NCBI GenBank assembly: GCA_963716175.1
Contig: OY970296.1
Coordinates: forward strand, 1,728,001-1,792,000
Reading direction: 5' to 3'
From: an uncultured Armatimonadetes bacterium
Lineage (GTDB): Bacteria; Armatimonadota; Hebobacteria; Hebobacterales; Hebobacteraceae
Length of the DNA stretch: 64,000 nt
A program made the position numbers and the translations under genes. Positions within the stretch are counted from its first letter, which is position 1. Each line of letters starts with the position of its first letter. The notes beneath the pieces were generated by a model. It was not told the origin of the DNA and did not search any database. It saw only the letters and a program-made list of their open reading frames with translations. Of the stretch, positions 22,396-64,000 are shown piece after piece.

Positions 22396-22422
22396 GGGGC
22401 AGGAGGCAAGCTCCTGCCCAAC
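22396..22422. repeat. Intact REP-like hairpin GGGGCAGGAGGCAAGCTCCTGCCCAAC (empty-site form)
   Basis: Identical to the joined flanks 34986-35000 + 35257-35268. Confidence 0.75.
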
Positions 22423-34988: not shown

Positions 34989-35268
34989 GCAGGAGGCAAG
35001 TGGCTAGGCTCTCTGGGCGCTGGCTAAGCCCGACCTTGCCGGGCCGCTGGCTGGGCCGGCGGAGCCGGCCGCCATCCCGGCCCTATCGGGCCTAGAAGCT
35101 GTTTCATAACCTTCCCAGGGAGGTTATGAAACAGCACTGCACAACGTCAGGCCGTGGCAGGCGCATTTCATGCGAGGGCGTGGTGCGGCCAGCTAGCAGG
35201 TAGGTTATGAAATACGCTCTGGCGACACCCCGGCCCGGCGTAAGCGGGCCTAGGGGCTCCTGCCCAAC
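34989..35268. repeat. ~280-bp composite repeat, copy 1
   Basis: Near-identical direct copy at 37845-38123; REP arms enclose CTAG-hairpin modules and a MITE-like core. Confidence 0.9.
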
Positions 35269-37844: not shown

Positions 37845-38123
37845 GCAGGAGGCAAGTGGTCAGGCCCTCTGGGCGCTGGCTAAGCCCGACTTCGCCGGGC
37901 CGCTGGCTGGGCCGGCAGAGCCGGCCGCCATCCCGGCCCTATCGGGCCTAGAAGCTGTTTCATAACCTTCCCAGGGAGGTTATGAAACAGCACTGCACGA
38001 CGTCAGGCCGTGGCAGGCGCATTTCATGCGAGGGCGTGGTGCGCCAGCTAGCAGGTAGGTCATGAAATGCGCTCTAGCGACACCCCGGCCCGGCGTAAGC
38101 GGGCCTAGGGGCTCCTGCCCAAC
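37845..38123. repeat. ~280-bp composite repeat, copy 2
   Basis: Direct copy of 34989-35268 with a few substitutions and a 1-bp indel. Confidence 0.9.
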
Positions 38124-38636: not shown

Positions 38637-38909
38637 GTGAGCGAACAGGCAGAAGCTGCGGAGGGAAAGCCGATCGGCGAGGTCACGCACTATTTCGGCC
38701 ACATCCACGTGATGGCGGTGGACCTCACTGGCAACCTGGCGGTGGGCGAGAAAATCCGGATCAAGGGGCACACCACAGACCTGGTGCTGACCGTGGGCTC
38801 GATGCAGATCGAGCACCAGAACGTCTCCCAGGCTGGTCCAGGGGACTCGGTGGGCATCGAGGTGGCGGAGAAGGTGCGGCCCGGGGACAGCGTGTACCGC
38901 GCTGGCTAG
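38637..38909 (+). CDS. Small beta-barrel 'translation elongation factor-like' / U32 C-terminal-like protein
   Basis: IGEVTHYF, KGHTTD, SMQIEH, GDSVGI, VRPGD.VY. Confidence 0.75.
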   Translation: MSEQAEAAEGKPIGEVTHYFGHIHVMAVDLTGNLAVGEKIRIKGHTTDLVLTVGSMQIEHQNVSQAGPGDSVGIEVAEKVRPGDSVYRAG

Positions 38910-46618: not shown

Positions 46619-46694
46619 GGTGAACGTAGCTCAATGGTAGAGCGCCGGACTGTGGATCCGGTGGTTGGGGGTTCAAATCCCCTCGTTCACCCCA
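46619..46694 (+). tRNA. tRNA-His (GTG)
   Basis: G-1, anticodon GTG, C73 discriminator, CCA; TTGACT-17-TAGCAT promoter at 46569-46597. Confidence 0.96.
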
Positions 46695-47507
46695 TTCTCT
46701 TGGCCGGGATAGCCGGCCCGCTTGGGGCCCAGGTCGGGGGTAAAGGCTGGAGGCGGAGCCTGGGTGCGGTGGTTGGGGGTGGCTAAGCCCAACGGGCCGC
46801 CATGGCGGTCGCCGCTGCCCGGCGACCTAGCCATTCAAATCCCCTCGTTCACCCCATTCTCTTGGCCGGGATAGCCGGCCCGCTTGGGGCCCAGGTCGGG
46901 GGTAAAGGCTGGAGGCGGAGCCTGGGTGCGGTGGTTGGGGGTGGCTAAGCCCAACGGGCCGCCATGGCGGTCGCCGCTGCCCGGCGACCTAGCCATTCAA
47001 ATCCCCTCGTTCACCCCATTCTCCTGGCCGGGATAGCCGGCCCGCTTGGGGCCCAGGTCGGGGGTAAAGGCTGGAGGCGGAGCCTGGGTGCGGTGGTTGG
47101 GGGTGGCTAAGCCCAACGGGCCGCCATGGCGGTCGCCGCTGCCCGGCGACCTAGCCATTCAAATCCCCTCGTTCACCCCATTCTCCTGGCCGGGATAGCC
47201 GGCCCGCTTGGGGCCCAGGTCGGGGGTAAAGGCTGGAGGCGGAGCCTGGGTGCGGTGGTTGGGGGTGGCTAAGCCCAACGGGCCGCCATGGCGGTCGCCG
47301 CTGCCCGGCGACCTAGCCATTCAAATCCCCTCGTTCACCCCATTCTCTTGGCCGGGATAGCCGGCCCGCTTGGGGCCCAGGTCGGGGGTAAAGGCTGGAG
47401 GCGGAGCCTGGGTGCGGTGGTTGGGGGTGGCTAAGCCCGACGGGCCGCCATGGCGGTCGCCGCTGCCCGGCGACCTAGCCATTCAAATCCCCTCGTTCAC
47501 CCCATTC
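46672..47507 (+). repeat. tRNA-His-linked tandem array: 5 x 162 bp plus a 26-bp partial unit
   Basis: Units start TTCAAATCCCCTCGTTCACCCCA at 46672, 46834, 46996, 47158, 47320 and 47482; only two variable positions seen. Confidence 0.95.
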
Positions 47508-47629
47508 CTTGTTGCTCCTGTGGGGCGGGCATAGCTACGCCCGCCATGGCCTGTCTGCAGGAACCGCCTTTCGCCGAGCAGAACCAGGCGCGACCCTTGA
47601 CTTCGGCCCAGCGACGCAGGAGGGACTAG

Positions 47630-49218: not shown

Positions 49219-49818
49219 ATGACCTGGGACTTGGCTTCTCACCAACGGCGATCGCTCCGGTTAGCAGGCTATGACTACCGACGACCAGGGGTTTACTACT
49301 TGACTATCTGCGCGGCCGATCGAGCGTGTACGTTCGGGCGTATGGATGGAGGCAAAGTGAGGGTAAGCTCGGTCGGGAAGATGGTGGCCGAGGAATGGGT
49401 GCGATCATGCGAAGTGCGGCCGGAAATGGCACTCGATGACTGGGTACTGATGCCCAACCACCTTCATGGAATCGTCACCATCACCGCGGGGGCGCATCGC
49501 CATGCGCCCCTACCTCTGGGCCTGCGGTGGCCGGAGGGTAAGCTGCCATTTGACTCCGCGCCCTTGCACAGGCCCTCCCGTTCTCTGGGCTCCTTCGTGG
49601 CAGGGTTCAAAGGCGCCGTCACCCGCCGTGTGATCGCGATGAAGGGCTCACAGATCACACCGGTATGGCAACGCGGGTACTACGAACATGTCGTTCGTGA
49701 TGAGGACGACCTCGAACGCGTCCGGGAGTACATCCGCGAGAACCCGCGCCGATGGGCAGAGGATACCGAGAATCCCGAAAGTAGGGGCGCATGGCAATGC
49801 GCCCGATCACTCAGATGA
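49219..49818 (+). CDS. REP-associated tyrosine transposase (RAYT, HUH Y1)
   Basis: RRSLRL.GYDY, YYLTIC, MPNHLH (HUH), WQRGYYEHVVR, YIRENP. Confidence 0.88.
   Translation: MTWDLASHQRRSLRLAGYDYRRPGVYYLTICAADRACTFGRMDGGKVRVSSVGKMVAEEWVRSCEVRPEMALDDWVLMPNHLHGIVTITAGAHRHAPLPLGLRWPEGKLPFDSAPLHRPSRSLGSFVAGFKGAVTRRVIAMKGSQITPVWQRGYYEHVVRDEDDLERVREYIRENPRRWAEDTENPESRGAWQCARSLR
49490..49804. repeat. Inverted pair of GTAG REPs inside the RAYT CDS
   Basis: GTAG-GGGCGCAT-GGCR-ATGCGCCC at 49490-49513 (-) and 49781-49804 (+). Confidence 0.75.
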
Positions 49819-54878: not shown

Positions 54879-55205
54879 TGTGATCGTGCTAGACGGGGAG
54901 CTAGCGGTGCCCTGCACCCGCAATCCGCTATAGCGGGGTCGAACTCCCGTCCGAGGGCGTGTCGTTTGGGGTCTGTGGGGGCGTAAGCGGTGTTGACGGT
55001 CGGGCCCTGCGCAGCGGGCGCTTTGCGAACCCCGTCAGGTCCGGAAGGAAGCAGCGGTAAGCAACGGGGCCTGTGTGCCGCAGACCGTCCGACCCGAGTG
55101 GCTAGGCCTGCCTATGGCAGGCCGCCACCCCGGCCCGAAAGGGCTTAGGGGCCGGCTGCGCTCATTCCGCCTGGGCGATCCGTTCGACGGCGGGTGCACG
55201 ATCAC
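54879..55205 (+). ncRNA. ffs: Large (Alu-domain) bacterial SRP RNA carrying a 53-bp insertion
   Basis: CGTGCTAGACGGGG...GCGGTGCCCTG Alu domain, TCAGGTCCGGAAGGAAGCAGC domain IV (55035-55055), terminal pairing GTGATCGTGC/GCACGATCAC; terminator at 55210-55237. Confidence 0.93.
55099..55151. mobile_element. 53-bp twin-hairpin miniature element inside ffs
   Basis: TGGCTAGGCCTGCCTATGGCAGGCCGCCA-CCCCGGCCCGAAAGGGCTTAGGGG; same ends as 35001-35256, and the same 5' end as the copy starting at 63952. Confidence 0.75.
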
Positions 55206-55399
55206 TTATGGGGCGGGGTCTAAGACCCCGCCCTTCTACTTCGCCCCAGCCCGTCTGCCTTCCCGAGACCCCAGAAGCCGGCCTAGACGGCGCAAATCGC
55301 GTTTCTGGCCAGGGCAGAGGTCAAGGCAGCGCCACGGGCGAAAAACCCGCAGGGCCTGCCATCAGTCTCGGGACCTAACGCCTTCCAGGAGAGACGACG

Positions 55400-63951: not shown

Positions 63952-64000
63952 TGGCTAGGCCCGCCTGCGGCGGGCCGTCACCCCGGCCGCTGTAAGCGGC
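63952..64000. repeat. Twin-hairpin element copy, truncated by the window end
   Basis: TGGCTAGGCCCGC-CT-GCGGCGGGCCGTCA-CCCCGGCCGC... following a GGGGCAGGTCGCG REP arm. Confidence 0.7.

Follow-up and report, generated by a model that had tools for sequence, protein, structure and literature searches.

The 64,000-nt stretch of DNA analysed here (the window) belongs to the genome of an uncultured Armatimonadetes bacterium, G000, a single contig of 4.56 Mb and 66% G+C in which it occupies G000:C1:1728001-1792000. The window carries ffs, the gene for a large signal recognition particle (SRP) RNA with an Alu domain, and within helix 5 of this gene lies a 53-nt unit of two bulged hairpins that is the subject of this study. 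Further copies of this twin-hairpin element stand in fragments of a tRNA-His gene and in the loops of repetitive extragenic palindromes (REPs), some of them in composites with a miniature inverted-repeat transposable element (MITE), and the window also holds empty forms of such sites and an open reading frame (ORF) for a Y1 protein resembling the REP-associated tyrosine transposases (RAYTs) (Table 1). Elements are named by their pair of modules, each module being one bulged hairpin: Type A joins a TGGC and a CCCC module, Type B joins two TGGC modules and has palindromic ends, and Type C joins a TGGC and a TCCC module.

Table 1. Features of the window that bear on the twin-hairpin element (window positions).
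Feature	Position	Strand	Length and evidence
Empty REP1 hairpin, GGGGCAGGAG-GCAAG-CTCCTGCCC; shows the hosts at 35001 and 37857 without an insert	22396..22422	+	
Composite in REP1 loop: three tandem left modules, TCCC right module, CCCC right module; MITE 'F' at about 35092-35222	35001..35256	+	
Second, near-identical composite in REP1 loop; left end degenerated to TGGTCAGG	37857..38111	+	
Intact tRNA-His(GTG), T-loop empty	46620..46694	+	ARAGORN, Rfam
Tandem array, 162 bp x 5.2 copies: tRNA-His downstream spacer and element-bearing tRNA-His 3' fragment	46672..47511	+	Tandem Repeats Finder, 99% matches
Type B element (TGGCTAAG...CCTAGCCA) between G53 and T54 of tRNA-His 3' fragment	46780..46833	.	
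Further Type B copies at G53/T54 of tRNA-His fragments	46942-46995, 47104-47157, 47266-47319, 47428-47481		
RAYT-like Y1 ORF, 199 aa; no flanking modules; GTAG-type REP-like hairpin at 3' end	49219..49818	+	
ffs, large Alu-domain SRP RNA gene	54884..55208	+	325 nt with insert, 272 nt without; RF01854, alignment, fold
Type A element in 3' strand of ffs helix 5, between CCCGAG and CCGGCTGC	55099..55151	+	
Left module: TGGC foot, TA bulge, GGCCTGCC-TAT-GGCAGGCC stem-loop, GCCA foot	55099..55127	+	insert fold, module scan
Right module, mirror image of left: CCCC foot, GGCCC-GAAA-GGGCT stem-loop, TA bulge, GGGG foot	55128..55151	+	fold
Type A element in REP2 loop (GGGCAGGTC-GCG^...^GACCTGCCCTAC), extending 7 nt beyond the window end	63952..64000	+	

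The element inside ffs had been predicted from the sequence of the window, and it proved to be exactly placed. The 53-nt unit TGGCTAGG...CTTAGGGG is matched once, where 0.09 matches would be expected by chance, and it reads TGGCTAGG CCTGCC TAT GGCAGG CCGCCA in its left half and CCCCGG CCC GAAA GGGC TTAGGGG in its right half. The Rfam model RF01854 matches 54884-55138 with 140.8 bits, the 3' strand of the model being forced into the insert, whereas the gene, once aligned with its counterparts in 21 relatives, proves to have its 3' end (...GGGTGCACGATCAC) near 55208. Relatives score 135-206 bits with this model, 24 of the 27 at 179-206, and G000 is about 40-65 bits below most of them. When folded with ViennaRNA the 325-nt RNA has a free energy of -163.2 kcal/mol and the insert forms two separate bulged hairpins, as it also does when folded alone. 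Deletion of the insert in silico leaves an RNA of -125.9 kcal/mol in which helix 5 is continuous and the fold elsewhere is unchanged; removal thus restores the long helix as had been predicted, with a resulting length of 272 nt (against the predicted length of about 274).

The family to which the ffs insert belongs is defined by shape rather than by sequence, and it is lineage-restricted, miniature and non-autonomous. It was scored by regular expressions and by pairing tests with controls. A module is a bulged hairpin of 21-31 nt in which a 4-bp foot is followed by two unpaired bases, TA, then by a GG/CC clamp and finally by a stem-loop whose sequence is almost free. Its conserved word is (G)CTA(G/A)G, with the TA bulging out between foot and stem. 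The usual element, of 47-60 bp, holds two modules foot to foot as mirror images, nearly always in the order plus, minus without a gap and with the bulges outermost, and its ends are exactly the outer feet. The two variable parts of a pair are unrelated and each half folds on itself. The end motifs alone (TGGCTRRG...CYTAG, then GGG or CCA) occur at 47 distinct loci in G000, 37 of which parse as two-module elements. Among 74 variable segments, 59 of them distinct sequences, 69 pair from both ends to a loop of at most 7 nt, compared with a mean of 16.7 and a maximum of 25 in 500 shuffles. When no foot was required, all four outer pairs were complementary in 143 of 1817 TA+RG hairpins (7.9%), as against 0.6-0.9% with AT, TT, AA, CA or TG in place of TA. 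The complementary feet were TGGC/GCCA (72), TCCC/GGGA (32), CCCC/GGGG (25) and CGGC/GCCG (6), and since several different complementary pairs are used, the foot covaries. Taken together, the shuffle and foot tests show that shape, and not sequence, is conserved. A generic scan for four bases, a two-base bulge, a hairpin and the complementary four bases ranked TGGC/TA first (85), with TCCC/TA at 33 and CCCC/TA at 26, and a strict module definition gave 149 modules in 102 islands. The loops are mostly of 3 nt (TTC, GAA, AAC and others), and the idea that UUCG- or GNRA-like loops might be a sign of selection at the RNA level was therefore dropped. The genome also has a second over-represented class of bulged hairpin, with foot CGCA and bulge TT, in 50 copies.

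Comparison of filled with empty sites shows how these elements enter DNA. The 60-nt flanks of the 102 elements were joined in silico and searched against G000, and 23 of the joined sequences match uninterrupted paralogous sites across the junction; in 15 filled and empty pairs that were inspected, target duplication was seen in none. The REP hairpin GCGGGCATG-CAGAGA^CATGCCCGC, for example, is empty at genome positions 472377, 3467946 and 4137564 and filled at 1591654, 3640231 and 3696581. Elements also enter each other: the Type C element at 1153730 has entered one of Type B at CCGC^CATGGCGG, with an empty paralogue of the site at 1215357-1215437 that is 98.8% identical over 81 nt without a gap, and nested insertions are likewise found in Type A centres. 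Seven copies of a 51-nt Type C element, 97.4% alike (minimum 96.1%), all stand at CCGC^CA of Type B hosts, and the 40-nt flanks of these seven hosts have a mean likeness of 70.5% on the left (minimum 59.5%) and 72.2% on the right (minimum 58.5%). This pattern fits recent, repeated, site-specific insertion and not the amplification of one composite. Type B elements have 8-bp inverted ends, yet show no duplication at the inspected sites, and the pairs as a whole uphold the prediction of a non-autonomous element with fixed ends that makes no target duplication of the kind that would point to a DDE-type MITE. Insertion is exact, duplication-free and directed to hairpins, and we have little doubt that the unit is a mobile element inserting in this exact and duplication-free manner. 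A search for orthologous sites within one genus (G012 loci against G008) gave one locus without a match and another whose two flanks lie on different G008 contigs, the repeat itself matching 48 other places. In an IS3-like transposase gene pair of G000 (G000:C1:1960500-1962700) elements of 45 and 48 nt stand at 1960851 and 1961422; both bring stop codons, and in-frame tolerance in proteins was rejected as an idea.

The same junctions bear on a reading that would need no dedicated enzyme, in which a polymerase that has stalled in replication or repair switches template between hairpins (copy-choice) and the product is then corrected within the palindrome. Insertions do occur at hairpin junctions, where forks stall, stems are kept while loops drift, and the CCGC found on either border of tandem left modules leaves an ambiguity of 4 nt that might reflect microhomology. 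At most junctions, however, microhomology is absent. The ends are base-identical in ffs, tRNAs, four REP families, insertion sequence (IS) genes and viral contigs, donor flank is never co-copied, and the seven Type C copies, 97% identical, occupy one exact position in diverged hosts. Template switching is accordingly an improbable source of these elements.

The majority of islands occupy loops of GTAG-type REPs that belong to the genome itself and are for the most part empty. By a rough classifier, 101 of the 172 GTAGGGCGGGC REPs are simple hairpins and 20 carry module motifs, and the same classifier found such motifs in 14 of 118, 12 of 140 and 4 of 34 members of three other REP groups; simple hairpins make up 41 of the 140 GTTGGGCAGG REPs. 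The REP at 22396-22422 is, as had been predicted, the exact empty form of the two composite hosts, and the bases following the last position of the window, which had also been predicted, read CTAGGGG and then GACCTGCCC, the prediction being right to within one G. Genome-wide, 39 of 88 merged islands lie no more than 1 nt from the stem/loop junction of an enclosing perfect hairpin of at least 5 bp and 17 lie elsewhere in such a loop, and the remaining 32 have no such hairpin. The corresponding counts at the junction were 440 of 5000 random positions and 19 of 176 positions 60-90 nt beside islands. This enrichment supports the proposal that DNA stem-loops are the preferred target, and because REP-hosted copies are not independent of one another it is to be read as a trend and not as a probability. 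The ffs site was classed as inside a loop in this test; on the antisense strand, by our reading of the sequence, it runs GCAGCCGG^ followed by the loop and CGGtCTGC, which fits the hairpin rule. There is no fixed target word, the dinucleotides before TGGC ends being spread over 8 types. The base before the TGGC end (n=100) is G in 52 cases, A in 28, C in 20 and T in none, all 20 of the C cases being insertions after the CCGC of another module. The rule that insertion always follows a G thus holds within the window but not across the genome. Inserts that are not modules, such as GTCGGAGTTTACCCTGAGCGGAATCGAAGGGC, stand between the arms of 33 of the 172 GTAGGGCGGGC REPs (examples at G000:C1:844746, 2327608 and 1155134), and REP loops may be landing sites for more than one small element.

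The tRNA genes lend independent support, and in them the position that is entered is again constant. All five copies in the tRNA-His fragments stand, as predicted, at the G53/T54 junction, and a decayed tRNA-Arg(CCG) copy at genome position 3484956 is filled at 53/54 and has an intact, empty counterpart at 3485360-3485434. This filled copy duplicates upstream non-tRNA sequence as well, and is therefore not a retrocopy. The same junction is filled in tRNA-Arg(CCG) copies or fragments of G002, G010 (two in tandem) and G011, in a tRNA-His-like copy of G015 and in a tRNA 3' fragment of G007; overall the pattern occurs in 6 of 31 genomes, none of them in families f3, f4 or f5, with one hit for the reversed control. 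An intact tRNA-Arg(CCG) gene was found in five of five genomes searched (G002, G007, G008, G010 and G011) and also in G000, so the filled copies are redundant. In G000 (His and Arg), G010, G011 and G015 an intact gene for the same tRNA stands no more than a few hundred bases from the filled copies, and in G002 the intact tRNA-Arg(CCG) is about 2.8 kb from the filled copy. These duplicates could be remnants of old attachment sites or survivors of insertion.

The T-loop of tRNA genes is a classical crossover place of integrases, which is a point in favour of a recombinase outside the HUH class, either a tyrosine recombinase that works on folded single strands in the manner of the integron integrase at attC, or an enzyme of the IS110 type. 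Each of these would recognise the bulged hairpin and exchange strands where arm meets spacer. The module is attC-like, with shape and extrahelical bases conserved and sequence free, and the targets resemble core sites in that two inverted arms surround a 3-8-nt spacer and are hit at the border of arm and spacer. No integron integrase was found, however: none of the 31 genomes exceeded the cut-off of 265 bits for TIGR02249, the best match being 94.6 bits and the matches being of a generic Xer-like kind. Nor is a core or overlap region duplicated at the two junctions, and a search for a gene-carrying version between module ends in hairpin hosts (150-6000 bp, by an 8-mer criterion) returned only the MITE-bearing copy of the window, with no gene between the ends. 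We therefore regard such a recombinase as unlikely.

The history of the ffs site can be followed in related genomes. RF01854 matched 28 of 31 genomes, namely G000 and 27 relatives of the same class, and the window's ffs was aligned by MAFFT with 21 of these 27; the six left out are f3 genomes whose matches of 264-265 nt span the full model, like the empty ones. Nothing stands between CCCGAG and CYGGCTGC in 19 of the 21 aligned relatives, and the insert is thus not an ancestral feature of the SRP RNAs of this class. An insert of the same build is present at exactly the G000 site in G007 (TGGCTAGGCCCGCC...CCTAGGGG) and, in degenerate form, in G012 (TGGTTAAGCTTGCC...CTCAGGGG), which belong to two other genera. 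In a FastTree phylogeny of 24 genomes from about 2.6 kb of rpoB DNA, G000 is sister to the ffs-empty G005 (support 0.997), G012 is sister to the ffs-empty G008 (1.000), and G007 groups with the g11 genomes (0.878), of which two are ffs-empty and one (G010) has no ffs match. The three carrier lineages are not each other's sisters. Either the site was filled three times or more, or it was filled once long ago and then emptied exactly on many occasions; both histories would require a precise mechanism of cutting and joining. A different insert of about 30 nt (TAAGCCCGCC...GGCGGG) lies between helices 3 and 4 in the ffs Alu domain of G015 (L026); it starts with TAAG and a hairpin, and is possibly a single related module.

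Evidence at the RNA level comes from Logan contigs of four runs, three of RNA and one of DNA, placed at a likeness of at least 90%. A contig of RNA run X11 (record 15; 129 nt, depth 9, 3 differences) covers 55055-55183 and so includes the whole insert, both junctions and flanks of 44 and 32 nt, which is weakly indicative of the insert being retained in the ffs transcript. Together with the occupation of the same ffs site in three non-sister genera, this contig supports the prediction that the insert is tolerated in ffs. Removal of the insert from the RNA was considered and rejected: the joined form (55098 to 55154, with CT between) is found in X11 but also in DNA run X1 and is the same as the empty allele of relatives, so it represents the allele of a relative and not a product of processing. 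These data also bear on the view that nothing is mobile here, the inserts being ancestral structural expansions, such as an old branch of the SRP RNA, or having entered at the RNA level and been copied back into DNA. That the three ffs inserts have a similar right hairpin, that several targets are abundant structured RNAs (ffs and tRNAs) and that the insert is present in an RNA-library contig would all suit such a view. It is nevertheless highly improbable, given that the ffs branch is missing from nearly all aligned relatives and its carriers are not sisters, that the element also occurs in contexts that do not look transcribed and in IS genes to which it brings stop codons, that the G000 tRNA-Arg copy with its upstream sequence is not a retrocopy, and that a DNA run and an RNA run both contain the empty form.

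The element was found only in two related families among 401 sampled genomes of the phylum. A half-element pattern hits 12 of the 15 genomes of the family, with 98 hits in G000 and none in G003, G004 and G005. In the 401-genome sample it occurs in 14 genomes, which are those 12 and two of family f5, G018 (92 hits) and G020 (3 hits), and it is absent from all other genomes of the sample; the reversed pattern gives 0-1 hit per genome. The matches listed in a wider scan of contigs are mostly single and probably chance matches in unrelated organisms, and among them the pattern stands on more than one contig only in metagenome-assembled genome records of uncultured Bacillota, Armatimonadetes and 'Candidatus Hebobacteria'. 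Five IMG/VR viral contigs (L231-L235; 65-66% G+C) each carry one complete two-module element in a context other than a REP. Each of these elements has a purine before it and a pyrimidine after it.

The best explanation overall, which we favour with some reserve, is a lineage-restricted, miniature, non-autonomous mobile family that is defined by its shape. The element is cut and joined precisely at its outer feet without duplication of the target, and enters preferentially at the stem/loop junction of a hairpin that is already present, be it a REP, the T-arm at 53/54 of a redundant tRNA copy, the centre of another element or helix 5 of ffs. In ffs the copy is probably carried in the transcript as an extra branch of two hairpins. 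Movement would take place as folded single-stranded DNA, with an enzyme acting in trans that may read the bulged hairpin and work at hairpin junctions, and a folded single-strand, hairpin-guided route of this kind seems to us the probable one.

A number of observations weigh against this explanation, beginning with the enzyme, as none can be assigned to the element. The original prediction had linked it to HUH Y1 proteins and in particular to the RAYT-like ORF of the window, a link that does not find support here. This ORF scores 64.3 bits with NF047646 (cut-off 80) and 22.8 with PF01797 (cut-off 23), below both thresholds, and with five further Y1-like ORFs it makes six in G000. The 350-nt flanks of the six genes hold GTAG REPs of the host types or nothing, and no modules; REPs of the GTAGGGCGG type stand beside four of the genes and REPs of the GGCAGGAG type beside one. 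Nor does the presence of a Y1 gene track the element: of 31 relatives, 27 have Y1_Tnp, among them G005 and the whole of f3 (12 genomes), none of which carries the element. Y1_Tnp was not found in G009, which has 17 half-sites, or in G001, which has 2, all of these assemblies being incomplete. Unlike in IS200/IS605, the paired hairpins are mirror images (the left bulge on the 5' side, the right on the 3' side) and no fixed target word, such as a tetranucleotide, precedes the element. Type A elements are oriented 13 plus to 6 minus with the same excess in both replichores and no switch at the skew extremes of G000 (minimum at 1.10 Mb, maximum at 3.55 Mb), these being small numbers. Other points concern targets, RNA and assembly. 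That 32 islands have no enclosing perfect hairpin is in part due to borders having been cut at degenerate modules, and many REP-hosted copies probably multiplied along with the REP around them. A GGCC(C)-GAAA-GG(G)C right hairpin is common to all three ffs inserts, which leaves room for a single ancient insertion that was later lost, exactly, many times. Depth in the RNA contig is only 9, and the RNA library may contain carried-over DNA. Contigs, moreover, do not reveal where an RNA ends, and those parts of ffs that the RNA contigs leave uncovered carry no information. Finally, rpoB of G000 (G000:C1:1158130-1161847) matches in several frames, which means that the assembly has indel errors and makes the lengths of homopolymers, including the GGGG/CCCC feet, uncertain.

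Much of the same evidence decides how far the modules could themselves be the REPs of a RAYT, their pairs being doublets like REPINs (REP doublets forming hairpins) that are cut and pasted by the protein at 49219 or a paralogue. The module does resemble a tagged REP, being a short palindrome with a conserved (C)TAG before the stem and arranged in inverted doublets (REPs as defined in PMC3733652), G000 has its six Y1-like ORFs, and target duplication is absent. Against this stand the lack of modules beside any of the six genes, the presence of Y1 genes in element-free genomes and the failure to find one in G009. Moreover, the two REPs of a REPIN pair with each other, which the two modules of an element do not, and the tag is a bulge above a 4-bp foot and not an unpaired GTAG end. 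We consider this relationship doubtful. Four of the Y1-like ORFs (G000:C1:3132006-3132578, 3625714-3626256, 961975-962520 and 4050696-4051292) read WQ.EFFDHLLR in a helix where the window ORF reads WQRGYYEHVVR; a tyrosine is expected in this WQ helix as the catalytic residue, and the four FFDH ORFs may lack it. The window ORF and the one at genome position 1199809-1200342 retain a tyrosine in the helix (WQ..Y(Y/D)H).

Returning to the mobile family defined by shape, an HUH Y1 protein of the IS200/RAYT class is the most likely single class for its enzyme, since this is known chemistry giving a seamless single-strand cut-and-join at hairpins; it is unproven, and we put it forward only tentatively. 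Somewhat less probable, but not remote, is a new transposition system with an enzyme outside the RAYT and IS200 groups that would read the shape of foot, TA bulge and stem and insert the unit exactly at the stem/loop junction of any DNA hairpin, T-arms of tRNA genes and ffs among them. If true, this would be the smallest structure-addressed mobile DNA known, with a natural 'hairpin-into-hairpin' insertion chemistry. The family combines a simple shape code with nested 'homing', in which elements enter the centre of their own kind, and it has repeatedly struck the tRNA T-arm and helix 5 of SRP RNA, hairpins that rank with the best conserved in biology; the rules of hairpin-guided insertion thereby become directly testable. 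An essential RNA can carry a 53-nt branch of two hairpins. RNA family models are affected, as seen in the distorted Rfam match of ffs, and so is the annotation of tRNA pseudogenes in uncultured lineages.

The composites of the window involve further repeats. What had been described as an expanded 256-bp form is a multi-module element with an unrelated MITE of about 130 bp inside it, and a MITE-free analogue is present from genome position 2406365-2406415 onwards. The MITE, 'F' (CTAGAAGCTGTTTCATAACC...GAAATGCGCTCTAG), landed in a CTAG of the element and has CTAG on both sides. It has imperfect inverted ends (CTAGAAGCTGTTTCATAACC...GGTTATGAAATGCGCTCTAG) and a core word, GTTTCATAACC, of which the two strands of the genome have 91 occurrences, frequently two to a copy. 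Its second copy in the window is at about 37950-38080 and others are found, for example, at G000:C1:572724 and 1058619; it seems to land at CTAG/YTAR, including sites of this kind within the hairpin elements. This CTAG MITE often adjoins, without a gap, a third repeat (...GATGTTCGCACAACGAAGTAATGTGCGAACATC...GTTACTTCATTCGGCGAAGCTC...) some 100 bp long, as at G000:C1:1300640-1300760. The two composites of REP, element and MITE are in direct orientation, 2.86 kb apart. The 'single modules' that had been noted at 38903 and 39457 turn out to be weak or degenerate matches.

No description of the twin-hairpin element was found in the literature searched, outside which most subscription journals lie, and to that extent it can be called undescribed; that claim does not extend to REPs nested in small palindromes and REPs inside genes, both already published in PMC3733652. 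There, REPs of Thermomicrobium roseum are described as nested inside small palindromes, and the supplementary files, with their lists of REPs inside ORFs, may contain related cases. Tagged REPs and their doublets are the nearest relatives in form, followed by the REPINs (PMC3116915, which also names small dispersed repeats and cites Elhai et al. 2008). Like REPs, bacterial interspersed mosaic elements (BIMEs) and the REPIN-RAYT system, the elements described here are palindromes in the range of 20-40 nt with a short tag by the stem, are arranged in inverted doublets, have a high copy number and make no target duplication, and they occur as many dispersed, short, imperfect palindromes between genes and sometimes inside them. 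They are unlike them in having a TA bulge above a covarying foot and a free stem-loop, where REP families are conserved in sequence and have an unpaired GTAG/CGTC tag, and their two units do not fold into one long hairpin. They also lie inside the loops of GTAG REPs, which form a separate set, no RAYT gene is flanked by them, and the presence of Y1 genes does not track theirs.

Elements of the IS200/IS605 group insert and excise exactly and without duplication, by single-stranded chemistry and with imperfect end hairpins that contain unpaired bases. The exact junctions, the lack of target duplication and the imperfect-hairpin ends are shared by the elements described here with this group and with palindrome-associated transposable elements (PATEs). 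In IS200/IS605, however, the hairpins are in the same sense, a fixed word of 4-5 nt is recognised and there is a lagging-strand bias, whereas the twin-hairpin elements have mirror-image hairpins and follow no fixed word. The small dispersed repeats (SDRs) of heterocystous cyanobacteria are reportedly hairpin units of 21-27 nt that may be nested, differ in presence and absence between relatives, and have neither target duplications nor a transposase; the likeness is to this description, and the phylum and the sequence are different. The attC site of integrons is a site of folded single-stranded DNA with extrahelical bases, conserved ends and a free middle. It stands in cassette arrays beside intI, in contrast to the dispersed elements of the present genomes, where no integron integrase exceeded the cut-off.

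Rickettsia palindromic elements (RPEs) are of about 100-150 bp and lie in frame in proteins, unlike the present units of 21-31 nt, of which the two copies in an IS3-like gene bring stops. RPEs are found in RNA genes as well. PMC3733652 describes them as selfish palindromes that functional genes tolerate. IS elements that target REPs, such as IS1397, differ from the present elements in being full insertion sequences that encode a transposase. Such elements make duplications on insertion. REPs are their preferred landing site (Tobes and Pareja 2006, as mentioned in PMC3733652). The spread of REP-like mini-repeats has largely been inferred, clean sites before and after insertion being rare, and the G000 family provides many that are exact to the base. 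It differs from the systems described so far in having no associated RAYT and in its bulge above a covarying foot, its free stem-loops, its mirror-image pairs, its residence in REP loops and its entry into the tRNA T-arm and ffs.

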